64,000 nt of DNA from Planctomycetota bacterium (GTDB lineage: Bacteria; Planctomycetota; GCA-002687715; DRQF01). The notes under the pieces are model-generated. The model did no database searches, was not told the DNA's origin, and worked only from the letters and a program-made list of their open reading frames with translations. A program made the translations under genes and the position numbers. The DNA lies in assembly GCA_027001995.1 (NCBI GenBank), contig JALTLO010000141.1:65336-129335 (forward strand), read 5' to 3'. Numbering within the stretch: the first letter of the stretch is position 1; the number at the start of each line of letters is the position of its first letter. Positions 44,665 through 60,450 of this stretch are shown one piece after another.

Positions 44665-47600
44665 TCATCGGTTTGATGGGCCCATGGCGGTTGTAGGAAC
44701 ACCGCAGTAGCGTTTGTTGGCAAGAAGCCTCTCATGCTTCATGACCACGCTGTGATGAGAAACTGTGGTATGGGCCCCTACGTCAGCTCCATAAAGAAGA
44801 ACGGAACCATCGTGGGTCGTTGCCTGAGGCCCAACACGAACCCAATCCATCTTCAGGACACGGTCTTCAAAACTGTGGGCTTGAAAAAGTCCGTTCACGG
44901 TGGCGCCATCTTCCAAGATAATCATATCGGGGTCGACCACCTGGGCGAATCCCCCAGTCAAAATGACGTTGCGCCCGATGCGAACGCCCATGGCCCGAAG
45001 ATACCAATGGATGAAAGGAGTGCCCTCGAAGGTCGTCAGAATTCCTTGGGCCCAAGCCCCCCAAGTCACATAGAGAAAATCCCACCGGCTGCACCAGCTC
45101 GACCAGAACCCATGCTGCCCAGGTTTGACCCGTCCGAGAAGGGACCATTTTACCACTAAGACAGCGCAGCAATGCACCAAGCCTAAGGCCCCGGTGAAGA
45201 GTGGAATCCAAATGAAAGCCGCCTCTGCTATGCTCTCTCTCTTCAAGCACGCCAAGACCGCCATCAACCAAACCACGGAAGTTAGAAGAGAAAAAAGGGG
45301 GAGAGCAAAACGCAAAGACTCCCAGAACAATCGTTGGGCAAACAGAAAAAGCCCTGGTTCATGGGTGAGCGACCTGGGCATGTCGATCACCTCCCGCCGT
45401 GGCAATTCAAAGGCCGGATGCCCAAACCAAGAAGAAGCGACCTTCACACCCCTGTGGCTCTTGGTGCAGATTCCCAAGAGGATGTCTGGGGGTAAGGCAG
45501 CCCCGGATTCGACCACCCCATGATTGCCCAAAAAGGTGTTGCAACCCAACTTGGTCAATGCCAGTGTCACTCGCCCTTGTTGGATCCGTGGTCCTCCCAA
45601 ATAGATCCCATCAGCAAAGAAACTCTGTTCACCGATTTCGATAAGTTCAGGGACAACATCGATGATCGTGCTGACTTCTGAATTGCGCCCAATTTTCATC
45701 CCGGCCGCCCGTAACCACCATGGCCAAAACAAAGTACCACTGAGCCAACCGTTGGCCCTATTCACTGCCGCCGTTTTCGTCCAAACACGGATGTAATCCC
45801 AGGACCATCGGCTGATGCACCCCACAGGAATGGGCCCCAAGAGTCGGCAGTAGAGAGCCTGCATCAGAAGGCCAATTGGACCAGCAATCAACGCCGTCGT
45901 CACCAGGATGAGAATCAACGTAGGCGAGAGATGAGGTGCAGCAAGCCAAGAGAGCACTCTGTCAGACGAGATGGCATATCTATCCACGAAGAATAGGGAC
46001 AAGAGCAGAAAAGGCAGTGCAAAAACGAAACCAACACTCACCCCAAAAGCAATGCTCAGAATCCCGTGAATAAGAGGCGACATCTCCTGAGGGCGATCTA
46101 AGTCAGGGAGAGAGGGTGTAGACCGAAGCAATGTGGCAGGAACACCGTCCCACATTTCATCCTGCCCGACCCGACCGTTCTCCTCCACCACAGAAAGAGC
46201 TGTCAACCAGCCCCCCTCTTCCACCACGCCGAAACCGTTGACTCCAGCCCGGGTCTCAATCACCGCTTTTGCACCGACAACAACAGGCGCCACCACGATC
46301 TGCCCATCTTCATAGTCAATCAAGCGCAATGCCGCATCTTGTCCGATAGTTGCATCGTCTCCAATCTCAAGCAGGTCCCACCCCCCATGAAGCAAGTTGA
46401 CACCTCGATGAATATGAACACGCCGACCAATGGAAGCCCCAAGCAAACGCAGGGCCGTGTTTTGGAAAACCGTACCAGCGATCAAGCCCCATGGAAGGAC
46501 CTGAACAAACCGTTGCACCAACCAATTACGCAGATAGAAACTGCCATAGACCGGACGTCTCATGGCAACGTACTTGCCGATCAAAAGCCATTTCATGGCA
46601 ATGACAAAAGCAAAAGAAAAAGGAATCAAAAGGAGACCGAGGACGGACAGCACCAAGGGCAGCCCAATCAAAAGAGGAATGAGATCCACATGACTGAGCA
46701 CATAGGGCAAGACCCGATCGATGCCAAACCAAACCACCGGCCCAGACAAGAGCAAAGCAAAAAGTAAGATCACTCCCTGAATAATCCCAGCCCCCATGGG
46801 ACTTCGCCGAGGGGCTTCCGTCCTCTGTGTTTCCGAACTCTGAAAGTCCTCTTGTTCTTGTTGCTCAACTCGGTCCGCCAACCCGGCAATTGTTGGAGCC
46901 TGGTAGATGTCTCGAACGGCCAAGTGGCTGGTTTTTGGGTATGAGCGGAGGGCAGATATGACCATCGCTGCCTTCAGTGAGTCTCCCTCCAGGGAATCGA
47001 AGAAATTGGCCGTCGACGAGATCCCATCCTCTCGCCCGAGAACCTCCTTCATCGCCTCTTCAATCAGGCAAGGTATCTCACCTTCGCAAGGGCCAAAGGA
47101 AGCTGAAGTCGCCTCTTGACAAGAGATGCTAGGTAAGCTCTTGCGGTCCAGCTTACCGCCAACACTCTTGGGCAATTCACTCATGAAGTCAAAGCGGGAG
47201 GGAATCATATGAGTGGGCAAGTGAAGAGCTAGCTCATCGCGCAGAGCTCCCCCAGCGGGAAGCTTGTTCCCCTCCGGCACCAGCCATGCAACGAGCATGC
47301 TTGTGCCATTTTGTTTCTGAACTTTGCAGGCGGCTTCCCGAATGCCGGAACAACGGACGAGATGAGAATCCACTTCTTCAAGTTCGATCCGGTGACCACG
47401 AATCTTCACTTGGCTATCGACTCGCCCGAAGCAAGTGAACTGGCCGTTGGGCTCTTGAACAGCCAGATCTCCCGTGCGATAGATGCGCCCCAATTGAGGG
47501 TGCTTCGGGAAGCGAGAAGCTGTCTCTTCCGGAAGATTCAAGTAACCACGGGCTAAGCCTATGCCAGACAAACAAAGCTCCCCAGGATGACCTCTGCCAA

Positions 47601-48633
47601 GCACTTGGCCTTCTTCATCCAAGACAAATGCCTCAATGCCGGCTACAGGCTCCCCGATGGAAATCGGCTCATGCGGTTCGACGCGGCAGCGTAAAGATGT
47701 CACCGTACATTCTGTCGGGCCATAGCCATTTTCCAACCAGAAGGGTTCGCCCCATGTTGCGGCGATGGTGGCATCAAGGGGCTCTCCCCCCACATAGAGA
47801 AGTTTCATGTCTGGCAAGTGACGGCCAGGATCTGAGCATCCGCTGGCTCGCAATAATGTAGGAGGCGGACAAAAAACCGAAATGCGCTCTCTTCTGAGCC
47901 AATCGATCAAATCTGGACCCAGCCGCGTCGTCTCAGCATCAAGAACCACAACTGTGGCGCCCACGCTCAATGCCAGCCAAATTTCTTCCACCGAAGAATC
48001 ATAGGATGGAGAAGATCCTTGAGCCACCCGATCCCTTGGGGTCAAAGAAAACCGTTCCACATCCGTGGCCACAAGATTAGCAATAGAACCATGCTCAACC
48101 AGAACGCCCTTTGGCCTACCCGTGGTGCCAGAAGTGTAGATCACATAAGCCAAAGATTGAGGTCCTACCCAGGCCGGGAGCTCATGTGCTTCCTGCTGCA
48201 AGGGAGAGGCCAAGGTGTCTTCCATCACCACAACCTGCGTGGCGTCCGAGACCAAAGACCGAGCCCGATCAACATGGCTCGCCTCCGTCACCAAGACCTT
48301 TGCTTCGCAATCGGAAAGCATGAACGCCAACCGTTCATCCGGCAATGTTGGATCCAGACAGCAATAGGCACCCCCGGCGTACATCGCAGCGATCTGGCTG
48401 GGCAAGAGGTGAATCGAATCACGCCCCAGAAGAAGAGGAACAATACTCTCCCCGGCAAGAGTTAAAGCGAGCTCCCGCGCCAAAATTTTCGCCCGGCCGT
48501 CTAACTGGGCATAGGTCAATTGCAATCGCCTTGGCCGCCCCAAACCCGGAGGAATCTCTATCGCGATGGAAGAGCCATGCAACCGAACAGTCTCAGCAAA
48601 AAGTTGGGGGAGTATGAGGGGTTCCATGGTCAT
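44665..48633 (-). CDS. Pls/PosA-family membrane-bound single-module NRPS (A-T-TM/C1-C3; homopolyamide synthetase-like)
   Basis: A motifs YTSGTTGRPKG, YGPTE, YRTGD, QVKIRGHRIELEEV and GKLDR. T domain FFDSLEGDSL. Three TM pairs, each followed by an RxxGxxIG hexapeptide domain (RLLGASIG, RAAGMKIG, RAMGVRIG), and QAHSFEDRVLK. Confidence 0.93.
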   Translation of the reverse strand: MTMEPLILPQLFAETVRLHGSSIAIEIPPGLGRPRRLQLTYAQLDGRAKILARELALTLAGESIVPLLLGRDSIHLLPSQIAAMYAGGAYCCLDPTLPDERLAFMLSDCEAKVLVTEASHVDRARSLVSDATQVVVMEDTLASPLQQEAHELPAWVGPQSLAYVIYTSGTTGRPKGVLVEHGSIANLVATDVERFSLTPRDRVAQGSSPSYDSSVEEIWLALSVGATVVVLDAETTRLGPDLIDWLRRERISVFCPPPTLLRASGCSDPGRHLPDMKLLYVGGEPLDATIAATWGEPFWLENGYGPTECTVTSLRCRVEPHEPISIGEPVAGIEAFVLDEEGQVLGRGHPGELCLSGIGLARGYLNLPEETASRFPKHPQLGRIYRTGDLAVQEPNGQFTCFGRVDSQVKIRGHRIELEEVDSHLVRCSGIREAACKVQKQNGTSMLVAWLVPEGNKLPAGGALRDELALHLPTHMIPSRFDFMSELPKSVGGKLDRKSLPSISCQEATSASFGPCEGEIPCLIEEAMKEVLGREDGISSTANFFDSLEGDSLKAAMVISALRSYPKTSHLAVRDIYQAPTIAGLADRVEQQEQEDFQSSETQRTEAPRRSPMGAGIIQGVILLFALLLSGPVVWFGIDRVLPYVLSHVDLIPLLIGLPLVLSVLGLLLIPFSFAFVIAMKWLLIGKYVAMRRPVYGSFYLRNWLVQRFVQVLPWGLIAGTVFQNTALRLLGASIGRRVHIHRGVNLLHGGWDLLEIGDDATIGQDAALRLIDYEDGQIVVAPVVVGAKAVIETRAGVNGFGVVEEGGWLTALSVVEENGRVGQDEMWDGVPATLLRSTPSLPDLDRPQEMSPLIHGILSIAFGVSVGFVFALPFLLLSLFFVDRYAISSDRVLSWLAAPHLSPTLILILVTTALIAGPIGLLMQALYCRLLGPIPVGCISRWSWDYIRVWTKTAAVNRANGWLSGTLFWPWWLRAAGMKIGRNSEVSTIIDVVPELIEIGEQSFFADGIYLGGPRIQQGRVTLALTKLGCNTFLGNHGVVESGAALPPDILLGICTKSHRGVKVASSWFGHPAFELPRREVIDMPRSLTHEPGLFLFAQRLFWESLRFALPLFSLLTSVVWLMAVLACLKRESIAEAAFIWIPLFTGALGLVHCCAVLVVKWSLLGRVKPGQHGFWSSWCSRWDFLYVTWGAWAQGILTTFEGTPFIHWYLRAMGVRIGRNVILTGGFAQVVDPDMIILEDGATVNGLFQAHSFEDRVLKMDWVRVGPQATTHDGSVLLYGADVGAHTTVSHHSVVMKHERLLANKRYCGVPTTAMGPSNR

Positions 48634-48674
48634 TCCTGGGAAGCGTCCGGTCGTTCAGCCCTGGGCCCGATGGC

Positions 48675-49223
48675 TCACAGCGATACTTCTCTATCCTCAC
48701 CCCCCTCACAAGTTGGGTTGGCAAGAGAATTCAAACGCCGGAGATAGTCGGCCAAGATTGGTTCGCGCTGCACCCTTTGGGCATGGGAAAGATAACGAAA
48801 ACCTCGGACCACCTCACAGCAATTCAGAGCTTTGCAACTGCAATGAAAGGGTGTTGCTAACTGGAACTCCGTGGAATTGTAGTCAAAAGTAATCTGCTCC
48901 CAAGCTTCGACATGCCTCAGAGCCACAAGCCTCTCACCACGAAAAGCGGCGTTAGGGTCGCAAGAATGATTGAGACAGCGCCAAGGATAGAGGTCAAGAG
49001 CCTCTTCCGTGGGGACACCAAGGGCTCCATCGACATGTTCATCGATTCCGATTTGTACAGAGTAGCGAGTTGCTTTGGCAACCCTCTCCCCCTTCAATCG
49101 AAGAATCTCATCGCCCTGGGACAGGTCTTGGGCTGCAACCAGACGAAAATGAAAATCGACTCTGATGACTGCCACGAGACCAGCCACCTGGGTCATGGAT
49201 TGATTCTCTTTGTACTCAGACAT
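48675..49223 (-). CDS. Small SET-domain N-methyltransferase with post-SET Cys motif
   Basis: LNHSCDPN, EQITFDY and post-SET FHCSC...C; AGGAAGG RBS. Confidence 0.92.
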   Translation of the reverse strand: MSEYKENQSMTQVAGLVAVIRVDFHFRLVAAQDLSQGDEILRLKGERVAKATRYSVQIGIDEHVDGALGVPTEEALDLYPWRCLNHSCDPNAAFRGERLVALRHVEAWEQITFDYNSTEFQLATPFHCSCKALNCCEVVRGFRYLSHAQRVQREPILADYLRRLNSLANPTCEGGEDREVSL

Positions 49224-49547
49224 ACGTACCTTCCTGTCAAGAAATAAACCCGGTCAGGCACGTACCGGTGACATACACTCTCCTACTCCATTCACTCCGA
49301 TGATGTTGGTGAAACATGACACAGAACTAAAAAAGCAGGCCGAGTGAATAACCCGCTTAGCCAACTTGTGTTCCGAAGAATTATTTTTTTGCCGCGGTCT
49401 TTCAAGTCGAGTCCTCAATGGAGGACTAAGCGAAAAAGATCCTTTTGAAATGCCCCGCCACCAAACCCCGAGATGTGACCATAGAAGGATTCCACATGAA
49501 CCCATCTTTATGGGTTCATGAATAGATCAAACTTGCAGGATAGATGA

Positions 49548-49581
49548 GAACGGTGGCACGCAAATCGGCGTGCCACCGTTC
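49548..49581 (-). terminator. Strong hairpin downstream of the met operon
   Basis: GAACGGTGGCACGC-N6-GCGTGCCACCGTTC perfect 14-bp stem; U-tract weak. Confidence 0.6.
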
Positions 49582-49608
49582 CCAATCCGAATTCCGCAGA
49601 CTCCCTTC

Positions 49609-50775
49609 CTATCTAAGGTTCGCACCCAAGTTGGTCGTGGACCGCTCCAGAGCTTGTGCCAGATCTTCCATGAGATCTTCGGGATCCTCAAGGCCAATGG
49701 AGATGCGCAATAGATTATTCGGGGGCCCCAACTTTCCTTTCAGGTGTTTGGGAATACTCCCGTGGCTCATTCCATGAGGCAAGCTTATGGTCGACTTGGT
49801 ACTGCCGAAACTAACTGTGGTGGCAAATAGTCGAGTGAAGGACAGGACATTCTTGGCAATACTCTCATCCTCCACCTCGAAACTCAAAACTGCCCCTGCC
49901 CCCTCAGCTTGAGACTGATGCAGCTCATACCCAGGATGGTTAGGAAGTCCCACAAAGTGTAGCTCCCTCACATCTTGATTCTTCGACAGCGCCTCGGCGA
50001 TGACCTTGGCACTCTTTTGTTGAGCATCAATTCGAACAGCCAAAGTTTCCAACCCTCGCAAGAGAAACCAAGCATCCATAGGTCCCAAGGCTTGCCCCAG
50101 CGCATTGTGGGCAAAAGCCAAACGGTCACCGATCTCTTGTGCTCGCCACCCCACAATGCCGGCTGTGACATCCCCATGCCCACCCAAGAATTTGGTCGCA
50201 GACTCAATCACTAAATCTGCCCCCAACTCCAAAGGACGCTGTAGCCAAGGAGACATAATGGAGTTGTCGCAAGCCAGCAGGCAATCCCGTCGGCGGCAGA
50301 TATCAGACACTTGGCGGATGTCTGTGACCTGATGAAGAGGATTACTGGGAGATTCAATCAAAAGGAGATCCGTTTGGGATGAGAGAGCGCGGGAAACTTC
50401 CTCCAGATCTCGGGTGTCGATAAACACAACATTCGCCAGATTTCTCTCCTTCAAGTCGCTGAGCAGACGAAAACTCCCACCATAGAGATCTCGCGACACA
50501 ACGAGACGACCCCCAAGGGGAACCAAAGCAAATATGGCAGCCAACGCGCTCATGCCACTTCCATACGACAGGCAACCCACAGCCGACTCCAAGTCAGCAA
50601 CTTTCTCCTCCAGAATCCGGCGAGTTGGATTGCCACTCCGGCTATAGTCGAATCGAGCCGACGAAGAATTTTCACTGAAAGCGAAAGTCGCTGTTTGATA
50701 GATCGGCGTTGATGTCGCCCCGCTTAGATCCTGACGACATCCAGGACGCTGGACAATTCTGGTCCTTAAGCTCAT
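49609..50775 (-). CDS. metC: Cystathionine beta-lyase-like PLP transsulfuration enzyme
   Basis: PIYQTATF, YSRSGNPTR, SGMSA, ESPSNP, DNS, SATKFLGGH and RISIGLED. The beta-lyase assignment is inferred from operon context. Confidence 0.75.
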   Translation of the reverse strand: MSLRTRIVQRPGCRQDLSGATSTPIYQTATFAFSENSSSARFDYSRSGNPTRRILEEKVADLESAVGCLSYGSGMSALAAIFALVPLGGRLVVSRDLYGGSFRLLSDLKERNLANVVFIDTRDLEEVSRALSSQTDLLLIESPSNPLHQVTDIRQVSDICRRRDCLLACDNSIMSPWLQRPLELGADLVIESATKFLGGHGDVTAGIVGWRAQEIGDRLAFAHNALGQALGPMDAWFLLRGLETLAVRIDAQQKSAKVIAEALSKNQDVRELHFVGLPNHPGYELHQSQAEGAGAVLSFEVEDESIAKNVLSFTRLFATTVSFGSTKSTISLPHGMSHGSIPKHLKGKLGPPNNLLRISIGLEDPEDLMEDLAQALERSTTNLGANLR

Positions 50776-52505
50776 GGTCCGACCTCCTGATCAATCCCCT
50801 CACAAAGTTCATCTCGCTGTTCCCTCAGAATCTGCAAGGCATCCCCCAGCACCGCTTCAGCCGTTGGGTTCGGGCCGGCCCCTTGCCCACGCAACTTCTC
50901 CACTTCCCCAGTCTCATAGACAATGACAACCCGGTTTTCAGCGCCCTTACATTGGCCGAGAAACGACTCAGAGGAAACCTCCTTCAAGCGGACCGTTGCA
51001 ATCGGTTGAGATCCTCGAAGTGAAACGGACGCCACTTGCCGTAATCGTTCCCCAGCATCCTTCGCTTTCAAACAACGAGCCCGCGTTTCTTGATCAATCT
51101 GGTCTTCGACCTGGGTAAGGGGCCTTCGCCCCCAAATTTCGCGGCTCATAACCACGAGCTTTCGAGCCGCATCCTCTCCCTTCAAATCGTCTTGAGGGTT
51201 AACTTCACAAAACCCGGATCTCTGAGCCAATCGTACTGCCTCTTCTTGGCTCGCCCCTTCGTGCATCTGATCCAGGACAAAATTCGAAGTCCCATTCAGC
51301 ACACCGTCGATACCCACAACAGAGCGATTTCTTCTTCGAGACGCGACAATCTCGATGATGGGAACGGCCCCGCCCACGGATGCCGAGAAAAACAAACGCC
51401 TGCGATGCCTGCGCGCCACTTCCTTCAGTTCATCCCCATACTGAGCCATGAGTTCTTTGTTCGCCGTGACCACATGGCTGCCGTTTCTCAAAGCCGTCTT
51501 GACGAAATGCCTAGCCTTGGGAACGTCCCCCATGAGCTCGATGACCAAGTCTGTTGATTCGGACACAGAGCCGAGGGTATCCGTGGTGAGAAGATTCTGC
51601 GGAACATCATCCCCCCGGCGCTTTTTCAAATTGCGAACAGCCACCCTCTGGACGCGGAAACGTTCTGGGCTGGCCAGTAGACGGAGCAAGACAGCCTTGC
51701 CAACCTGCCCGCAACCTAGGAGCACAACACTCTTCGGCGACAACCTCTCAGGGGGTGCAAAAAGGACAGTCTTTCGAGCGCCCACATGCGTTCCTTTCCC
51801 GCCGCCCACTTGGCGCACTTCAAAGACCTGCCCTAAGTCGGCCGCCCACCTCACAGCTTTTTCCTGCAGAACATCACCGTCAATCGTGAGAGCATCTTCA
51901 AACGACAAGAATCGGTATTGCCGGGGGTTGTGCCCAGGACAAGATGGGTCTGACTCAAAGACACCATCCGTGTCCTTTAGCAGGATACAAGTGAGGGCTT
52001 CGACTTGGGCTGCCACAAAAATGGCTGTCAAGTCAGAACCACCACGCCCAAGAAGGGTTGGCCGCAAGAACTGATCACGACCAATGAATCCTGGAATAAC
52101 CAGAACATCGTATTCTAAAAAGAACTCACGAATCCGAGAAGCACCGAGGCTTTCGGGCTCTGCATCCAGAAAATTTGATGTCGTGACCAAGCCCAATTCA
52201 TGCCCCAACAACGGGAAAGCTGCTATCCCTGAGTCACAGCAGGCCATGGTCAGAAGGCCAACGGAGCGCGTCTCACCTGTCGACAAGAGTAATGCCAAGC
52301 TTCCTGCGTCCGGCTCGGGCGCTATTGTTCTTGCCTCTTGAATAAGACTATCAGTTGCCTCACCAATAGCGGAAACCACGGCAATGACTTGATACCCCAA
52401 GCGCCGATGACGATAGATTTCTTCAACAGCCGCCCGAATTTGTCCCACATGACTCAACACGGAACTACCGAATTTCAGGACGGCAATAGGTGCAAAAGAG
52501 CTCAC
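50772..52505 (-). CDS. Compact aspartate kinase-homoserine dehydrogenase fusion lacking ACT domains
   Basis: AK motifs VLKFGSS, LGRGGSDLTA and DGVFESDP. HSDH motifs GCGQVG, VTANK, GVLNGTSNF, DAARK and GAGPNPTA. Confidence 0.9.
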   Translation of the reverse strand: MSSFAPIAVLKFGSSVLSHVGQIRAAVEEIYRHRRLGYQVIAVVSAIGEATDSLIQEARTIAPEPDAGSLALLLSTGETRSVGLLTMACCDSGIAAFPLLGHELGLVTTSNFLDAEPESLGASRIREFFLEYDVLVIPGFIGRDQFLRPTLLGRGGSDLTAIFVAAQVEALTCILLKDTDGVFESDPSCPGHNPRQYRFLSFEDALTIDGDVLQEKAVRWAADLGQVFEVRQVGGGKGTHVGARKTVLFAPPERLSPKSVVLLGCGQVGKAVLLRLLASPERFRVQRVAVRNLKKRRGDDVPQNLLTTDTLGSVSESTDLVIELMGDVPKARHFVKTALRNGSHVVTANKELMAQYGDELKEVARRHRRRLFFSASVGGAVPIIEIVASRRRNRSVVGIDGVLNGTSNFVLDQMHEGASQEEAVRLAQRSGFCEVNPQDDLKGEDAARKLVVMSREIWGRRPLTQVEDQIDQETRARCLKAKDAGERLRQVASVSLRGSQPIATVRLKEVSSESFLGQCKGAENRVVIVYETGEVEKLRGQGAGPNPTAEAVLGDALQILREQRDELCEGIDQEVGP

Positions 52506-53734
52506 AGCGTTACCTCCCCTGTGGCGCTTATGGAATCAGACAAATTGAGAAGGCAAAACGCCAAGTCAGCTTTGAGATCATCAAAACTCTCCAAACCAAC
52601 AGAAAGTCGAATAAGACCAGGCGTGATTCCTATCCGTGCTCCATCATGAGGGTTCAAATCAGCATGAGTCATCGACGCTGGATGAGTCACAATTGACTGA
52701 GTGGCTCCTAGATTCTCTGCTAACGTGATGAGCTGCACTGAAGAAACCAAGGAGCGGGCCCCAGCGAATCCGCTCTTCAGTTCAAAGGCAATGATGCCCC
52801 CCCCGGCTTCTTGTTGCTTGGATGCCAGAGAAAACTGAAAATGGGAAGGCAATCCAGGGTAAAAGACATGGGCAATCGCGGGTAAGCCTTCTAACCAGGA
52901 TGCCAACTCCAACGCCGTTCGCGATTGCTGATGAATACGCAGTGGGAGAGTCTGAATGCCTTGAAGAGTCAACCATGCCTCAAACGGCTTTTGATTCAAC
53001 CCCATCGTCTTCAGAAGACGCCTCAGTTTTTTCGCCAACTGTGCATCGTCGAGGGTCAAGGCGCCGCCCACTGTGACATTATGGCCATCGAAATACTTTG
53101 TTGTGGAATAAAGGGCGATGTCCGCTCCGAGTTCCCGGCAATTCTGCAGACAGGGCGTGAGAAAAGTATTGTCAACAGCAAGCAACGTTCCTGCCCGCTT
53201 TGTCACTTCGGCGAGAGCCCCGATGTCAGCTATCTTGAGAGTTGGATTCGCTGGGGACTCAACAAAGACAAGCTTTGTCCTCTTGCTGATAGATCGCCTC
53301 AGTGCGGTGGCATCAGATGTATCGATGAATCGAACTTCAATTCCCAGGGGTTGGAGAACTTCCTCAATCAATCGTGTGGTTCCTCCGTAGACCACATCAG
53401 AGCAAATGAGTTCGTCCCCAGATTGGAGCAAAGCAAAAAACAGAGCCGTGCTAGCTGACATACCAGTGGCAAAACAAATTGCGTGTTGTCGCTGATCAAG
53501 AGAGGCAATGGCCTCCTCCAAGCGCGCTACCGTCGGGTTCGAAGCCCGGCTATAGGTGTGTTGAATAGAATCTCCGATGGAGTTTTGGGCATATGTTGTA
53601 GATTGAAAAATGGGCGAGACCATAGCGCCTTCGGCAATTGGCTTGGTGTGGCCACCATGAACGGCACGGGTTTCGAATCGATGTACGGACGCTGACTGCA
53701 TAACGTTTACTTCCTGCTTCTGCGCGCTGTTCAT
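52502..53734 (-). CDS. metB: Cystathionine gamma-synthase-like PLP enzyme
   Basis: PIFQSTTY, YSRASNPT, ESPANP, DNTF, STTKYFDGH and RLSVGLE; AGGAGA RBS. Confidence 0.8.
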   Translation of the reverse strand: MNSAQKQEVNVMQSASVHRFETRAVHGGHTKPIAEGAMVSPIFQSTTYAQNSIGDSIQHTYSRASNPTVARLEEAIASLDQRQHAICFATGMSASTALFFALLQSGDELICSDVVYGGTTRLIEEVLQPLGIEVRFIDTSDATALRRSISKRTKLVFVESPANPTLKIADIGALAEVTKRAGTLLAVDNTFLTPCLQNCRELGADIALYSTTKYFDGHNVTVGGALTLDDAQLAKKLRRLLKTMGLNQKPFEAWLTLQGIQTLPLRIHQQSRTALELASWLEGLPAIAHVFYPGLPSHFQFSLASKQQEAGGGIIAFELKSGFAGARSLVSSVQLITLAENLGATQSIVTHPASMTHADLNPHDGARIGITPGLIRLSVGLESFDDLKADLAFCLLNLSDSISATGEVTL

Positions 53735-53915
53735 GATCTCCTGAGAAAGAGCTCATGAGCTATGCGTTAAACGTGTTGATGGAATCGAGTCGCTCGTCTG
53801 CAGGGCAATCTGTTTTCTCCACGACGATGTGAAGACGTAGATTGCCTAGCAGGTGAAAGGCTCATGAATTATTGGTGAGTGTGGCCCAGGATCGGGCGCC
53901 TTCAATCGATGCTGC

Positions 53916-53996
53916 TTACTTTGAAGCTCTCAACGACCAAACGCATCCCCGACCTGGGCGGGGCATTTGCATCATGTTGGTTTGCATCGTTGACAT
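53916..53996 (-). promoter_or_regulatory. Met-rich leader peptide ORF (MSTMQTNMMQMPRPGRGCVWSLRASK*), candidate attenuator
   Basis: Hand-translated 27-codon ORF with 5 Met in the first 11 codons, lying between the promoter and metB. Confidence 0.7.
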
Positions 53997-54038
53997 TCTT
54001 GATCTCTGTTTTTTCTGTCCCTATGGTGGGACGGCGAA

Positions 54039-54067
54039 AGTATAGAGGCATTCTCTACATGAACCAA
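54039..54067 (-). promoter_or_regulatory. Sigma70-type promoter for the met leader/operon
   Basis: TTGGTT-17 nt-TATACT on the minus strand. Confidence 0.6.
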
Positions 54068-54313
54068 GCTTTTTTCCCAAATGGCGGACTGCCATGAATT
54101 TCATTTCGGCGTCTTTTGGATTGGCATTGTAATATCGTTCTCAACCAACATAGGGGTCATTGGATCAAAGGCACGATCTGAAGGTGACTCAGTTGAAGGA
54201 AAAAGCAACCCTTGAGAGAAGGGGCGAAGAACAAATCGATCAATGACATTGCGCAGATACTGAAATGTCGGCAGTTAGACCTCAAGGATATTGAAGCCTG
54301 TAGCCCCAGCGCC

Positions 54314-54370
54314 ATCAAGATCAAGATCAAGATCAAGATCAAGATCAAGATCAAGATCAAGATCAAGATC
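54314..54370. repeat. Hexanucleotide VNTR (ATCAAG) x9.5
   Basis: Perfect tandem copies, intergenic. Confidence 0.97.
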
Positions 54371-54466
54371 GTAGGTAGAGCGCAAAGAGCCTCTGAAGAT
54401 TTACCAAGTTGTGACAATCTTTATGTGGAGGTGAAGTAGGATCTTCAGGAAACGAAAGGAGGTTAT

Positions 54467-54997
54467 ATGAGAACACACACATGTGTAGCCCAAGTTTTGA
54501 TTCTCTGTTCTTTGCTCATCTGTTCTTGTGAAGAAAGGAGCACTCCGAGTGAAGCCACCAAACCGGTGGCCTCCAACGAGAAAGTCCTTCGGATCTTAGG
54601 CAGTATGGTCGATGGTTCCTGGGAGGGAAGGTCCCTACCCCAGCTCGATTGGCAGGACGTCGATGCACTCTTGGCGCGAGCTGACAGCACAACCGACCTC
54701 AAGTCATTCCCCGCCAACCCACTGTCTTCCCAGGCACAATTCAGTTGTCCGGAGGGCATCATGGCCCTGTGGTTGGTGGAGAGCATGCGCAACAAGGCCA
54801 AAAGTGGCTATCCGTCCTTGAATCCTCTCTGCCTCGGAGCCCAGAACAAAGACATGTCATGGGAAGAAATGTCCAAGGCGAACTTAGCCAAAGCCGCTCA
54901 GGCCTATCGGTCATGGTGGCAAAAGGTCAAGGACCAGGATGAGGAAAAACGTAAGGAGGTCGACCCTTTGGAGGCAGCCCACCTTCACTGGTATTGA
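54467..54997 (+). CDS. Lipoprotein (DUF4943-like)
   Basis: Lipobox LLICS-C, FPANPLSS..GIMALWLVESMR..YPSLNP and AYRSWW; AAGGAGG RBS. Confidence 0.65.
   Translation: MRTHTCVAQVLILCSLLICSCEERSTPSEATKPVASNEKVLRILGSMVDGSWEGRSLPQLDWQDVDALLARADSTTDLKSFPANPLSSQAQFSCPEGIMALWLVESMRNKAKSGYPSLNPLCLGAQNKDMSWEEMSKANLAKAAQAYRSWWQKVKDQDEEKRKEVDPLEAAHLHWY
54944..54997 (+). repeat. 54-bp direct repeat, copy 1 (3' end of the lipoprotein gene)
   Basis: 52/54 identical to 56639-56692. Confidence 0.95.
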
Positions 54998-55260
54998 TCC
55001 AAGGATGTGACGGCACCTCGGATGGCCACAACTTCTTCCCCTGATTTAGAGCAGATGGGGGTGGCCCATAGGGGCCACATTTTGGCCAGATTTATGAAGA
55101 AAGCTGGCAGGGCCGAAGCGGAATTTCTCCTTGTTCCTCTCCCACTTCAGTGGACGCAACTCAAGTGAACGTGGCCCAAACGAAACAGTATTCGAGCGAG
55201 GGGTGGTGCCCTCGAGACCAAGAAATTGGCGTTCCACTGGAAATCCGGCCCCCCCATTTC

Positions 55261-55310
55261 TATGTAAATCCAAAGTTGAACTTGAGATTTACATAAACCA
55301 TGGCGATAAT
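55261..55310 (+). promoter_or_regulatory. Inverted repeat overlapping a sigma70-like promoter
   Basis: TATGTAAATC...GATTTACATA palindrome; TTGAGA-17-GATAAT ending 6 nt before the ATG at 55317. Confidence 0.6.
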
Positions 55311-55316
55311 CAGATC

Positions 55317-56486
55317 ATGATTCATAGAGATTTGAGCCTTGAGTTATCGAAGTGCGCCGCTGATTACCCTGTTGTCACAATTCTGGGGCCAAGGCAGTCA
55401 GGGAAGACAACCTTGGTGAAAGCGTGCTTCCCAAACAAGGCCTACTTCTCACTTGAAGATCCAGATGTGCGAGCCGCGGCAGAAGCTGATCCGAGAGGAT
55501 TCCTGTCGCAATGCGATGGCGGCGGAATCTTGGACGAAATCCAAATTCTTCCCAACTTGCTTTCTTACATCCAAGGCATCGTCGACAACAAACAGATTGC
55601 TGGCCACTTCATCTTAACAGGGAGCCATCAGACCCTTTTGCACCAATCCGTCACTCAATCGCTCGCAGGCCGGACTGCCATGCTCGCCCTTTGGCCTTTG
55701 TCGATTTCAGAGCTTCGACAAGCCGAAAGAGAACTCGGGGCATTCGAATTGATTGCATCAGGGTTCTTTCCAAGAAAACACAAGAACGAAATCGAGTCGA
55801 GACGGTTCTACAATGATTACTTACAAACCTACGTCGAGCGAGACGTCCGTTCACTCATTCGACTCCGAGACTTGTCCGCTTTTCAGAGCTTTCTCACTCT
55901 TCTTGCGGGCCGCGTCGGGCAGATTCTAAACTACACTTCACTCTCCAATGATGTCGGCGTTTCGGCAACAACGATCAAGGAATGGATCAGCGTCTTGAAA
56001 GCATCCTTCATCGCCTTCGAACTCCAACCGTATTTCGCCAATATCCGTAAGCGCGTAGTCAAATCGCCCAAAATTTATTTTACAGACGTTGGTCTTGCAG
56101 CTTCGCTTCTAGGTATCCATGACAGCAACCAAGCTTCGAGAGACCCTGTGCGCGGGAACCTCTATGAAAACCTCGTGATTGCTGACATCCTTAAAGATGG
56201 TCTCAACCAGGGGATTCGGCCAGAGGCATATTTCTTCAGAGATTCCAACGGCAACGAGGTCGATCTTTTGATCAAAGAAGAAGGCAAGCTCATTCCCATC
56301 GAAATCAAATCCGCCGCGACATTTTCGATCAACGCTCTTAAAGGTCTAACTCACTTTAAGAGTCTAGATATCGACCGAGTCCAGCCCGGCTTCGTGCTCT
56401 ACAATGGCGACCAAGAGCACCAAGTGAATGGAGTTCGCGTATTTAATCCATTGCGTCGTGAAAAAATCTGGAACACCCTCACTTAG
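55317..56486 (+). CDS. AAA_14 ATPase with C-terminal DUF4143 (PD-(D/E)XK-like) domain
   Basis: GPRQSGKTT, ILDEIQ, LTGS, SLAGR, YVERD, KSPKIYFTDVG and EVDLL..IPIEIK. Confidence 0.92.
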   Translation: MIHRDLSLELSKCAADYPVVTILGPRQSGKTTLVKACFPNKAYFSLEDPDVRAAAEADPRGFLSQCDGGGILDEIQILPNLLSYIQGIVDNKQIAGHFILTGSHQTLLHQSVTQSLAGRTAMLALWPLSISELRQAERELGAFELIASGFFPRKHKNEIESRRFYNDYLQTYVERDVRSLIRLRDLSAFQSFLTLLAGRVGQILNYTSLSNDVGVSATTIKEWISVLKASFIAFELQPYFANIRKRVVKSPKIYFTDVGLAASLLGIHDSNQASRDPVRGNLYENLVIADILKDGLNQGIRPEAYFFRDSNGNEVDLLIKEEGKLIPIEIKSAATFSINALKGLTHFKSLDIDRVQPGFVLYNGDQEHQVNGVRVFNPLRREKIWNTLT

Positions 56487-56638
56487 CGGTATCGGTCAAC
56501 TGCTGGACCGGGCCCAGGCCATCGTCCCACCCACCCCTCCTTCGGGAGCGCCCCAATGCGGGACAGCAGCCGCCTTAGTGGGCAATGGCATGAAGTCAAA
56601 TTCCGAGCCATGTGCTACATGTCATTCTTTGCCGTCTT

Positions 56639-56692
56639 GAAAAACGTAAGGAGGTCGCCCCCTTGGAGGCAGCCCACCTTCACTGGTATTGA
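56639..56692 (+). repeat. 54-bp direct repeat, copy 2
   Basis: 52/54 identical to 54944-54997. Confidence 0.95.
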
Positions 56693-56817
56693 AGTGATTG
56701 GCCAACTTGAGGTGGTACAGATGAAGTGACCGCCCGCGGACGGCCACAGCTTCTTCCCTAAGTTTGGAGCGGGTGGTGGTCGCCCGTTCGGCCACATTGT
56801 GACAAGAAATTGAATCG

Positions 56818-57204
56818 CTAAGAATCAGACGATGTGGTGATCTTGATCAACAACGTGAACGAAGCCAAAGCCCCCACAACACCTGATACAAGTCGAGAAG
56901 CAGCTTGTTCGTTTGGAATATCCGGCAGACCAGTGCACCCACAGATTTTCCCTTCCGGCACAAGAAAATGCTGATAGCCGATACCGAAAATTACGAACAA
57001 GAGGGTCAGTAGCGCCGCCAATCTCCAATACCGCGTGAATAGTAGGCCAGCTAAGAGGAATTCCAACATGATAGCTGTATAGTAACTGAGTCGAGACAAT
57101 GACATGACGTCGTCGAATCCGTTCACAATCTTGACAACCGCAGTAGTGATCAAGGAAAGCGCCAGCAGAGCAGACACGGCGACTCGCATTCTTGGCGAAT
57201 TCAT
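56818..57204 (-). CDS. MauE/DoxX-family membrane protein
   Basis: Four TM helices, AVVK, EFLLAGLL and a periplasmic CGC(T)G motif. Confidence 0.75.
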   Translation of the reverse strand: MNSPRMRVAVSALLALSLITTAVVKIVNGFDDVMSLSRLSYYTAIMLEFLLAGLLFTRYWRLAALLTLLFVIFGIGYQHFLVPEGKICGCTGLPDIPNEQAASRLVSGVVGALASFTLLIKITTSSDS

Positions 57205-58829
57205 CGGTGAGATCGCTTCATTTTCAGTTCTATCGTTCTTGACTTCGGGGGATTCTTGAAATCCGCAAAACCGAGCCCAGGAAGATACCCTGGGGCAAAT
57301 GCCTGAAGCTCAATAACTTTTTTGACCGGTAGCCAAAGTTCAATTTCGAAGCTCTGAAGTTTCCTGGGCCAAGGCGCTCGGGGGGCAGCCAATTCCTTAA
57401 CGAGAAGCTTGGTCCCACGTAGTAAGCCATCCTCGGAGCCAACTCTCACCTTCACTCTCCAAATTTCATCAATTAGTTTCAAATTCACCTTGTTCGTCTC
57501 ATCGTCAATTTCAAACGGAATTTCTTGCCGTTTCATATCACAGTACGGCGTGTAGACTCGGGCGAAGTACTTACCGGGCAATAATCGATAGACTTCAGAT
57601 TCATTTGCATGGCTGACAAAAAAGGCGCGATTGCCGTGTAGAGCCTGACGAAAATGAAGGGAGAAATTTCGGAATCCCTTCAACTTGCCCTGCTCATCTT
57701 CTACGCTGAACTGAACAACGCGCGCTGACTTTACGTCCGCAGCAACAATTGTCGGCCTCTGAAACTCTGATAGTGGAACGAAATCAATGCTAGCGCTTTC
57801 GACTCTTTTACGTTCGACATAACTGAGCGACAATTCCTCCGCCATAACCTCATTTGGCAAAGCAACGAAGACAAGGGATCCCGGCCACTTGTTTTCCAAG
57901 GTTTTCTTAATTTCATCTAGCTGAAAGAGACCTCCTGCGAATTTGGTCTTTATCGCGATCTGAAAGCTGTGGGGCACCGCCGTTAGTTTTTCAAATTGTG
58001 CTACTGCGACGACAGGCTCCACCATGTCCACCTTCACGATACCATCATGGGGGATTTGCAAGATTCGGACCGCTGTCCTATCCGCAGGGAGCATGATTTC
58101 ATCTCGACAAAACAGATGCAGCTCACCAGCCCGCAGCCCTTCGAGCTTGACTATGCCGTCAGTATCGCTCACGCCTCCGATAACCCGAGCGGAAACAGAA
58201 GCAAATCTTGAGACAGGCTCAAGATCAACTTCACCGCGAAAGAAGCAGTCCGCCACGGTCGTTCGCGTCGCCAAGACTCGAACCCCCTCAATTGGCTTGT
58301 GCGAATTGAGGGTTCGAAAATCAATACGAAGCGAGTATCCTTTGCTCAGATAAACGGTCGTTCGAGATTGTCTTTCCAGGACCATCAATTCTGAAGAGAT
58401 ATATCCGGAAGCAGAAACGCCACACTCAACCCTCTTTTCGCTCTCCTGAAATTTGTATTGACCATTTTCATCCGTCTTGCCTTCAACGACCACTTTCTTG
58501 CCCAAAACCAAAGAAACATCCGCCCCTTTAACAGGAGCGGATGTTTGCTCATCAAGGACCATGAGTACGATACTCTCATCGGGCTCTGTCGGAACTATCC
58601 GCGAATCGGAAACATTGCCAAGATTCTTACCGACGCCCGAAGGCCTATTCGCATGAGCAATACTCGCTGGCCGTGTTCGTTGATCCGAAGAGTCAGAGAT
58701 TCCAAGCAATTGCCTGTCGTCTTCGCCCTCATCGGACAGAAGAAAACACAAGAGGAGCACACCTCCAACGAGCACAAAGCAACAAGAGAAAAAGATCCTG
58801 AGAGATGAAGTTTCACTGTTCAAGCTCAT
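57201..58829 (-). CDS. Membrane-anchored protein with carboxypeptidase-regulatory-like (transthyretin-fold) domains
   Basis: N-terminal TM helix; repeats VLDEQTSAPVKGADV..KTDENGQY..SASGY and KPIEGVRV..SDTDGIVKLEGL. Confidence 0.75.
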   Translation of the reverse strand: MSLNSETSSLRIFFSCCFVLVGGVLLLCFLLSDEGEDDRQLLGISDSSDQRTRPASIAHANRPSGVGKNLGNVSDSRIVPTEPDESIVLMVLDEQTSAPVKGADVSLVLGKKVVVEGKTDENGQYKFQESEKRVECGVSASGYISSELMVLERQSRTTVYLSKGYSLRIDFRTLNSHKPIEGVRVLATRTTVADCFFRGEVDLEPVSRFASVSARVIGGVSDTDGIVKLEGLRAGELHLFCRDEIMLPADRTAVRILQIPHDGIVKVDMVEPVVAVAQFEKLTAVPHSFQIAIKTKFAGGLFQLDEIKKTLENKWPGSLVFVALPNEVMAEELSLSYVERKRVESASIDFVPLSEFQRPTIVAADVKSARVVQFSVEDEQGKLKGFRNFSLHFRQALHGNRAFFVSHANESEVYRLLPGKYFARVYTPYCDMKRQEIPFEIDDETNKVNLKLIDEIWRVKVRVGSEDGLLRGTKLLVKELAAPRAPWPRKLQSFEIELWLPVKKVIELQAFAPGYLPGLGFADFKNPPKSRTIELKMKRSHR

Positions 58830-58864
58830 GTTCCTCCTTTTGGAATTTCAAGTCCTTTGGTCGA

Positions 58865-59242
58865 CTAACACCCGCAGACCTCGGTCCAATGCTCAGTTAC
58901 TTCCGACAAGACGGTACAAAGTCCAGGGCAACTTAAGTTTGCGCAGTCCGGAATATAGGGCTCAGGCGGCAGAGTTGCATAGCATCCGACGCTACTGGGT
59001 GTGTAGTAGACGCCAGAATCAGTTTGGCATTGGCACGTCACATCACCATTTGGCCAACCGACCATGACGCACAAGTCACTGCCTGGACAAACACCAGCAC
59101 ACTTAGTCCGAATTTTTTCGAACCCGGCATCTTGAACAAACATTGTGCAGCTGCCTACTTTTTTTCTAACACTCAAACTCATGCCCGCAGTCCACGACAT
59201 CACGACGAAGCATATAAACAGAGCGATCAAACATACTCTCAT
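58865..59242 (-). CDS. Small secreted cysteine-rich protein
   Basis: GGAGA RBS, signal peptide, 12 Cys in the mature region, ends in CGC. Confidence 0.75.
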   Translation of the reverse strand: MRVCLIALFICFVVMSWTAGMSLSVRKKVGSCTMFVQDAGFEKIRTKCAGVCPGSDLCVMVGWPNGDVTCQCQTDSGVYYTPSSVGCYATLPPEPYIPDCANLSCPGLCTVLSEVTEHWTEVCGC

Positions 59243-59617
59243 CGTTCTTTCTCCATTCTCAAAAACGAACACAGGGTTCATGGAACCGTTCCAAGGGCTA
59301 TAACTCTCCCTTGGAATGACCTGCGATCCTCAGTGAAACGGTTGCCATCAAAACCCGCGTCCCAACTTTCGATCGACTATGATCCAGATTGGCGGCTTGA
59401 CCGATTCCGAATTCTTACTGCCCGGCAAGCGCAAGTTTTTATTCGATGTCCTGCGATGGGACTCCACTAAGGAGAATTACCTCAAGCAATCTTCCACCCC
59501 GCACAAATTGGAGCAGGCCCACGGTGTGCACAGATTCCCAAGCAAAGACGCAACACGAACAAATGCTGTGCTAATGGCCCGTCCCAATTCTCTACATGTA
59601 CGAAGTATGGAGATTGC

Positions 59618-59666
59618 TCAAGAACAGTCAAGAACAGTCAAGAACAGTCAAGAACAGTCAAGAACA
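59618..59666. repeat. 10-bp tandem repeat (TCAAGAACAG) x4.9
   Basis: Perfect tandem copies. Confidence 0.95.
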
Positions 59667-60396
59667 ATCTTATTTTCAAGCGAACAACCCAAGAGATACG
59701 GAAGTCTATTGAGTCTCACCAAGCGAGTGGCCTGTCGATCAATGAATTTTGCCGCCAGAACGATTTGGCAATCTGGACTTTCGGCTATTGGCGCCGCCAG
59801 TTTCGCCAAGGGTGGAATTCAAGGTCATCATAAACGACAGAGTTTGAAGTTTCTGTCCCGAAGTGCTTCACACAGATTCTTAATCTGGCCCCGAGTTGGT
59901 GGAGGTTTTGTCTTCATGCTAGCTTTATCGCCAATGACAAAGATTTTCGCTTGCAAGGAACCGACCGACCGACATGCGCAAAGGCTTGGATGGTCTGTCA
60001 GAAATCATTCGAGGCGTCATGGAACAAGATCCCTCGTCCGGCCATCGTTCCTTCATGAATCGCCATCGCTACTTGGCAAAAATTTTCTAGTTCGAGCAGT
60101 CCGGATCTTGGATGCTGTACAACTACAAAAGATTGGGGGGCGGCAATTCTCAATTTTCTTGAACACGGTGAAGTCGAGATTGGCAATAACGGCGCAGAAA
60201 GAGCTAGTCGGACAGTCTCTCTTGGGCGAATCCAAGCTTTCTCGCACCTTGTCTTGGTCCACAAGAACACTCAGTTTCTTTCCCGGCCGCACAGACAGAA
60301 AAAGTGGCCCATATGGGCCACCTTTGTCTGGTTCCATGTAAATTCTTGGTCCAAATGGAGCCATTTGTACTAGTAGCGCGGTGGGGGATATAGAAA

Positions 60397-60425
60397 CACG
60401 CAGCAGGATAGCGTCCTGCTGCGTG
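60397..60425 (-). terminator. Intrinsic terminator of sucCD
   Basis: CACGCAGCAGGA-N5-TCCTGCTGCGTG stem followed by TTTCT on the minus strand. Confidence 0.8.
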
Positions 60426-60450
60426 CTTGGTGCGATCATCTCAAATGGAA

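Follow-up and report, generated by a model that had tools for sequence, protein, structure and literature searches.

The stretch of DNA analysed here, a 64,000-nucleotide window on contig JALTLO010000141.1 of a Planctomycetota bacterium, encodes on its reverse strand a SET/post-SET methyltransferase of 182 aa (P0001; 48675..49223, (-)) from a stand-alone family resembling BurB and, directly downstream, a Pls/PosA-like single-module membrane synthetase of 1322 aa (P0002; 44665..48633, (-)). The pairing of these two genes is real, and bacteria that carry it are probable producers of an as yet undescribed, methylated amino-acid polymer with positive charge. In the account that we favour, with a confidence a little short of an even chance, the SET protein would methylate a basic amino acid in its free form, with Lys a better candidate than Arg, for the synthetase to build into a cationic, probably non-isopeptide product.

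Linkage of the SET gene and the synthetase

The original prediction described an intact SET gene 41 bp upstream of a co-oriented, intact synthetase of the plan A-T-(TM2-C)x3, that is, adenylation (A) and carrier (T) domains followed by three pairs of transmembrane (TM) helices, each with a soluble repeat; coordinates and domain matches agree with this description, and neither a peptidase nor a racemase adjoins the pair, as had also been stated. The spacer (48634..48674, (-)) contains a ribosome-binding-like stretch, such purine-rich stretches being found 5' of both genes, and in relatives a gap of 8–147 bp separates the SET and synthetase matches. Both genes differ from those of same-genus relatives mostly at third codon positions, with identities of 0.37–0.43 at third and 0.70–0.80 at second positions. 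Adjacency recurs far beyond chance and is not unique to the source genome, as the proposed gene-neighbourhood check made clear.

A SET profile scan of GTDB returned 32 loci. The synthetase lies directly downstream in 16 of the 21 strongest (E ≤ 6e-27), or in 11 of 16 once the five query loci are set aside, and in 0 of the 11 weaker ones; where SET stands alone, the synthetase is encoded elsewhere in four of five genomes, three of these four being close relatives. Within the source class, SET is present in 8 of 9 synthetase-positive and in 0 of 14 synthetase-negative genomes. Similarly, across 201 Planctomycetota genomes, in each of which at most 17 candidates were scored, 11 carry an intact clade synthetase (at least 43% identity) and 9 an intact clade SET; all nine of the latter carry the clade synthetase, adjacent in eight and on a separate contig in the ninth (G070). 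No clade SET was found in the four Planctomycetota genomes with distant Pls homologues, and no synthetase in four with weak SETs (E 1e-14 to 6e-20). The Fisher p for co-occurrence, 5e-14, is overstated because related genomes are not independent, and it is not relied on.

Meanwhile, two proteins (P0111 and P0309), placed apart from each other in both trees, join an N-terminal SET to the synthetase in a single chain. All synthetase-linked SETs are held by one branch of 182 rows (Shimodaira–Hasegawa-like approximate likelihood ratio test, SH-aLRT, 93). SET and synthetase distances are correlated, with a rho of 0.42 over 34 pairs and of 0.37 over 25 dereplicated pairs, the latter reached in 30 of 5000 permutations; shared ancestry of the hosts could lie behind part of this correlation. 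In G006 both genes are broken, SET being split over two frames (L032:1227-1917) and the synthetase reduced to a 79-residue remnant on another contig (L024:6878-7126). This conservation in many genomes, together with the two fusions, the joint decay in G006 and the correlated distances, bears out the proposal that the pair is a functional unit. A group of four closely related Streptomyces plasmids also has both genes, which in the two records examined are separated by 10 and 14 kb; on one plasmid (L149:12316-22182), a PucR-type regulator and the synthetase are followed by several proteins of ~455 aa without a Pfam match, and SET lies 5' of a SulP transporter.

The metagenome scan returned 69 synthetase loci, 19 of which lack the 5' end or enough flank; SET lies upstream in 19 of the 50 informative loci and convergently downstream in 1. 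When neighbours were clustered, SET alone recurred across many synthetase loci, with APC amino-acid permeases, MFS/spermidine-synthase fusions, phosphopantetheinyl transferases (PPTases) and HGSNAT/DUF418 proteins turning up sporadically; no substitute methyltransferase was seen as a recurring neighbour of SET-less synthetases. In the phylum of G045 (Acidobacteria, 251 genomes), a clade-like synthetase occurs in four genomes and SET only in G045. The dependence is best read as mostly one-way, of SET on synthetase, with SET as an accessory tailoring or supply gene, because there are genomes with the same adenylation pocket that keep the synthetase and in which no SET-clade gene was found. Databases annotate such SETs as protein-lysine N-methyltransferases, and the occurrence of the synthetase without SET would also suit an enzyme that regulates the synthetase or unrelated proteins, with an adjacency that is regulatory or incidental. 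However, the near one-way dependence, the two fusions and the joint decay in G006 speak against such a role, as do a SET fold nearer to BurB than to histone methyltransferases and a SET-N tyrosine missing throughout the synthetase-linked proteins, and we consider it very unlikely.

The synthetase and its adenylation pocket

The synthetase carries AMP-binding, AMP-binding_C and PP-binding domains and six hydrophobic segments arranged as three pairs; translation probably starts at Met3, and the database copy has 1320 aa. The A domain covers residues 37–500 (47134..48525, (-)) and the T domain residues 524–589 (46867..47064, (-)), with the carrier Ser552 within GDSL, while the terminal membrane domain (44668..46803, (-)) has three TM-helix pairs, each followed by a soluble repeat, and a Q1251-x-H1253-x-F-E-D-R motif. 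This is the architecture by which cationic homopolyamide (CHPA) synthetases are recognised, a single-module A-T with a terminal domain of three TM pairs and three soluble repeats. TIGR02353 is matched over profile positions 8–694 of 695 (E 2.7e-100), with a score of 336.7 bits below the curated cut-off of 423.1, and two other clade synthetases score 356.1 and 369.6 bits; the match being full-length and the score under the cut-off, the enzyme therefore belongs to a divergent sister clade and is not a curated member. In the tree, 78 clade synthetases form one branch with full support against six outgroup enzymes. As side observations, P0114 is a synthetase–PPTase fusion, and some clade synthetases have an HGSNAT_cat/DUF418 membrane acyltransferase-like domain, either fused at the C-terminus or encoded by the next gene (L109:4561-5811, L125:4775-6025, L113, L140, L085:4293-5255 and L139:1830-2840), a hint that the product may be acylated or transferred.

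The adenylation pocket reads D212, S213, E216, C255, Y280, G282, G303, V311, T312 and K494, that is, DSECYGGVTK; the mapping is validated because the same alignment reads PosA as DMEHNGTVSK, its published code. Code positions 1 and 3 hold Asp and Glu (D212 and E216), the residues required there of CHPA synthetases (PMC10522769, PMC12042044). The same ten residues are found in 109 of the 120 top homologues (P0018-P0137) and in the Streptomyces enzyme; the uniformity of the metagenome loci is partly built in, because the scan pattern included one code residue. Variant pockets among the 120, possibly for another substrate, are DSECHGDVTK in three and DSESHGDVVK in one.

It has been reported that a Bdellovibrionales A domain with the code DSECYGGVTK, Bdello_A (OFZ39577.1), gives rates of 2.79–3.24 with Arg, 0.58–0.72 with Lys, 0.21–0.43 with Orn (ornithine), 0–0.10 with Dab (diaminobutyric acid) and 0–0.16 with citrulline, against a blank of 0.04–0.09 (PMC10522769). 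L-Arg is thus activated about five times better than Lys, and Orn, Dab and Dap (diaminopropionic acid) barely; the authors propose a larger true substrate and leave the substrate of this pocket open, and in the same work a small residue at code position 2 tracks with long side-chain substrates (PMC10522769). The original prediction had assumed that the synthetase links Lys, Orn or Dab into a polymer via their side-chain amines, and this premise is weakened because the same-code homologue prefers Arg and hardly uses those diamino acids. The gene context offers a candidate substrate for the pocket, namely, a methylated cationic amino acid made by the partner SET.

The terminal-domain residues common to PosA and a Dab-type enzyme are intact (E986, D1008, N1037, E1105, Q1251, H1253, E1256, D1257 and R1258), and their conservation suggests a catalytic role. 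Clade-invariant D1185 and D1234 are Glu in the six outgroup enzymes, and extra Trp/Tyr residues occur at 715, 752, 970, 1011 and 1184, so that the condensation site may well work and be tuned to a bulkier cation. Sequence search for the terminal domain found no meaningful solved relative, and its single-sequence fold was unusable (predicted local distance difference test, pLDDT, 38). If instead SET made N-monomethyl-Lys or -Orn, the synthetase would yield a side-chain-linked polyamide with N-methylated (tertiary) amides or methyl-capped ends. For this there are the intact terminal-domain residues, the retained Asp235 and Glu239, the low but real activity of Bdello_A on Lys and the precedent of FlvH, which N-methylates free Lys for a natural product. 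Yet the pocket uses unmodified diamino acids poorly, while SET-less genomes keep the enzyme intact; Phe113 of SET suggests methylation beyond the mono stage, and many clade-invariant positions (D1185, D1234, the added Trp/Tyr) differ from isopeptide-forming enzymes. Such a polyamide therefore seems to us decidedly improbable.

The SET protein, its substrate and the proposed product

The SET protein matches PF00856 with 32.5 bits (cut-off 22.4), and its SET core with the post-SET zinc site occupies residues 28–135 (48819..49142, (-)), the region of the residues invariant in synthetase-linked SETs. It retains the NHSC motif and Y115, as well as four Cys (C88, C128, C130 and C135). Among 47 synthetase-linked SETs, Q57, H63, W81, H86, C88, F113, Y115, E119, F126, C128 and C130 are invariant, and N85 and C135 are found in 46 and 45, respectively; position 43, that of the SET-N tyrosine, is L, I, V or F and never Tyr in all 47 (L43 here). 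In canonical protein-lysine SET methyltransferases this tyrosine (EYxGE) orients the lysine amine. By the enzymology of SET7/9 and DIM-5, Phe113 together with the absent SET-N tyrosine favours either an amine that is methylated more than once or a thioether as substrate.

The predicted model is confident (pLDDT 86) and has the SET fold. Among solved structures, BurB comes first in phmmer, profile search, Foldseek and VIA-align; the two folds agree with Z 14.0 and an rmsd (root-mean-square deviation) of 3.3 over 125 residues at 27% identity, the next solved match having Z 11.8, and the Met-gripping segments of BurB align without gaps to T52–Q57 and Y115–F126. BurB grips free Met via main-chain contacts from two segments, with a pocket that seals when S-adenosylmethionine (SAM) binds (PMC12542666), and provides a thiotemplate pathway with a methylated amino acid (PMC7496086). 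A free amino acid is a likely substrate of SET because this nearest solved relative methylates free methionine. The likeness does not single out one amino acid: others in the family are closer to BurB (a chytrid protein at E 4e-12 and a cyanophycin-synthetase SET at E 4e-13, the window SET at E 2e-7), and BurB H72, S88 and M122 are replaced. Of the original proposal that SET is an N-methylator of small molecules, the role on a free amino acid is plausible in the light of BurB; N-methylation is less certain, because the nearest characterised SET is a methionine S-methyltransferase. Modelling of SET in complex with the A-T didomain returned a score of 0.01.

Taking SET for a methionine S-methyltransferase like BurB, its product would be S-methylmethionine, and the synthetase would build a sulfonium-bearing peptide or conjugate. 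BurB tops the solved matches in sequence and in structure, the Q57/H63 and Y115–E119 motifs and the missing SET-N tyrosine are common to both proteins, and Glu239 and Tyr299 of the A domain could hold a sulfonium; a more distant family member (L161) adjoins two homocysteine S-methyltransferases, and in the source genome a metB-like/fused aspartokinase–homoserine dehydrogenase (AK-HSDH)/metC-like block (49609-53734, (-)) lies directly upstream on the same strand. However, likeness to BurB is family-wide, need not mean orthology and is greater in other members, and the window SET has Y, W and F where BurB has H72, S88 and M122. The side chain of S-methylmethionine is of Dab length, whereas a long chain is indicated by the Ser at the second code position and by the falling order Arg>Lys>Orn>Dab, and no genes of the dimethylsulfoniopropionate (DMSP) pathway recur near the clustered loci. 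The Met block, moreover, sits in an insertion of ~11 kb (roughly 49300-60450) between sucD and SET that is missing in both same-genus genomes, G001 and G002, in which sucD is directly 5' of SET; the Met operon was accordingly ruled out as a conserved part of the system. All in all, a sulfonium product appears quite improbable.

Other members of the small-SET family are joined to different partners. Trypanosomatid proteins of ~1450–1510 aa (P0288-P0307, P0138 and P0139) match the family, the two inspected having nine matched stretches, that is, tandem copies; small SETs are also fused to D-Ala-D-Ala-ligase-type ATP-grasp domains and, in one case, to an NNMT/PNMT-type methyltransferase (P0311, P0312, P0314, P0317, P0140, P0313). 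In G222, a SET-CxxCxxCC fusion gene is followed by two homocysteine S-methyltransferase genes (L161:7143-10237), which suggests an S-methylmethionine cycle in that organism. With related SETs fused to both cyanophycin synthetases and ATP-grasp ligases, the family has repeatedly come to serve enzymes that form amides, two of which are linked to Arg.

In the mechanism that we propose for the free-monomer account, SET would bind SAM and a free basic amino acid and methylate its side-chain nitrogen, converting, as a first guess, Lys into N-epsilon di- or trimethyl-Lys, with Arg as the second guess. The A domain would then activate a long, bulky cationic alpha-amino acid, a step shown for the same-code homologue; it would take Arg and probably the methylated monomer, and load it onto Ser552 once this is primed by the PPTase of the genome, of which the source genome has one, within a 233-aa frame. 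Judging from its conserved residues, the membrane domain may join the tethered residue, in repeated rounds of condensation, to an acceptor with a free amine. Because neither Arg nor di- or trimethyl-Lys bears a primary amine on its side chain, one would expect an alpha-linked product, or a conjugate with some other amine, and not an epsilon or delta isopeptide. Genomes without SET would make an unmethylated Arg-type product. By analogy with the family, the product is likely to be a secreted or surface-bound polycation.

Several observations weigh against this account. An upstream SET is present at only 19 of the 50 informative metagenome loci, and full rescoring found no clade SET in G017, G141, G425, G404 and G347, which are incomplete genomes (G017 94% and G141 91% complete). 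The pocket is identical in the four SET-less genomes read, and with these four no residue position cleanly separates synthetases with SET from those without; conversely, fairly close SETs for which no synthetase was found occur in G042, G222 and G434, the latter two in the phylum of G045. BurB, the only structurally characterised member of the family, methylates sulfur, and it too is without the SET-N tyrosine. Bdello_A is tied to this clade by its ten-residue code alone, its assay table does not include Met or methylated amino acids, and the characterised products of the Pls family are all isopeptides, so that alpha-linkage is without precedent there (PMC10522769).

Because the pocket is the same with and without SET, methylation after assembly fits equally well: the synthetase would use ordinary Arg or Lys everywhere, and SET would come in later, methylating the residue on the carrier, the end of the chain or the completed oligomer. 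The homologous A domain already accepts Arg fairly well, and SET stands N-terminal to A in both fusions. Initiating methyltransferase domains likewise sit N-terminal to A, which offers an analogy for these fusions, and the SETs fused to cyanophycin synthetase also accompany a polymer-forming enzyme. Against late methylation, a fold of the BurB type shuts around a free amino acid, several genomes have SET unlinked from the synthetase, which suits a diffusible small product, and the polymer would arise in the membrane domain, which a cytoplasmic SET may not reach. We hold this alternative to be unlikely, if well worth weighing.

A bolder form of the free-monomer account is that the clade abandons the side-chain isopeptide rule: a small-molecule SET dedicated to the task would supply a residue with a permanent charge (trimethyl-lysine, methyl-arginine or S-methylmethionine), from which the synthetase would build an alpha-linked homopolymer, and SET-less relatives would make oligo-arginine; we regard this as speculative and rather unlikely. 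If true, it would be a natural poly-onium peptide from a widespread, undescribed clade. The free-monomer account itself, if true, would add a new polymer type of interest as an antimicrobial or cell-penetrating material and would show what the many small bacterial SETs of a large family, labelled protein-lysine methyltransferases in databases, act on. Cultured Streptomyces strains carry both genes, so the question is testable now.

Genomic setting and comparison with known systems

In the source genome, the pair is followed on its 3' side by murA, mobA and housekeeping genes. The AK-HSDH fusion of the Met block has no second tblastn match in the genome at E 1e-8, and a six-base unit in about nine tandem copies lies in the intergenic region 5' of that block (54314-54368). 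A terminator-like hairpin between the Met genes and SET (49333..49358, (-)) is given as context and is of a kind that occurs at chance frequency: promoter and terminator scans of the window were at chance level, with 17 terminator-like hairpins against 14.6 in shuffled sequences. Rfam at the gathering threshold gave no match in the whole window, and only chance miRNA matches in the two intergenic regions checked, so that this search reveals no riboswitch connecting the Met genes with SET. DNA contigs match the window sequence; the main run may be the window's own source, and a second study gives short pieces only.

The original prediction knew of no characterised Pls–SET pairing. Our full-text search, outside which most of the subscription literature lies, likewise found no description of such a pairing or of a product of this clade, the literature having been covered mostly at listing level. 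Every cationic homopolyamide that the PosA paper lists is an isopeptide built from unmodified diamino acids (PMC10522769).

The synthetases of epsilon-poly-L-lysine (Pls) and delta-poly-L-ornithine (PosA) resemble the window enzyme in the A-T-membrane plan, the length of ~1320 aa, Asp and Glu at code positions 1 and 3, and the terminal-domain residues. Compared with PosA, the window synthetase is ~32% identical over the matched terminal part, falls in a separate clade, has a different pocket and scores below the TIGR02353 cut-off; PosA is encoded in a single-gene operon (PMC10522769), whereas this clade often has a SET partner. Bdello_A has the same ten-residue code as the window synthetase. 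It is known as an assayed A domain only; the passages of the paper that describe it name no partner gene, and the word "methyltransferase" does not appear in the main text (PMC10522769).

BurB (PDB 9L4T/9L4V) shares with the window SET the small stand-alone SET/post-SET fold, from which the window protein differs by an extra helix (residues 72–83) and by W81 and F113 in place of S88 and M122. BurB works with a decarboxylase, a transaminase and a dehydrogenase, and the A domain of its pathway is without Asp235 (PMC7496086), a residue that the window synthetase keeps; the corresponding S-methylmethionine decarboxylase, transaminase and dehydrogenase genes do not recur within 5–7 kb of the clustered loci. 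A further comparison is with the fungal enzyme FlvH, reportedly of the SET type, which the original prediction cited as methylating free lysine. Its activity as a lysine N-methyltransferase is corroborated in one review passage: together with a decarboxylase, FlvH converts Lys to dimethylcadaverine in the flavunoidine pathway (PMC8902786). FlvH, known here by description, resembles the proposed system in that free Lys is methylated for a natural product, and differs in its partners, a decarboxylase and terpene enzymes.

The cyanophycin synthetase–SET fusions (P0315, P0316 and P0319-P0333) carry a related small SET at the C-terminus of another non-ribosomal, Arg-using polymer synthetase. These SETs form a separate branch outside the 182-row clade, and the polymer would be made by ATP-grasp/Mur chemistry, in contrast to the A-T-membrane plan of the window synthetase.

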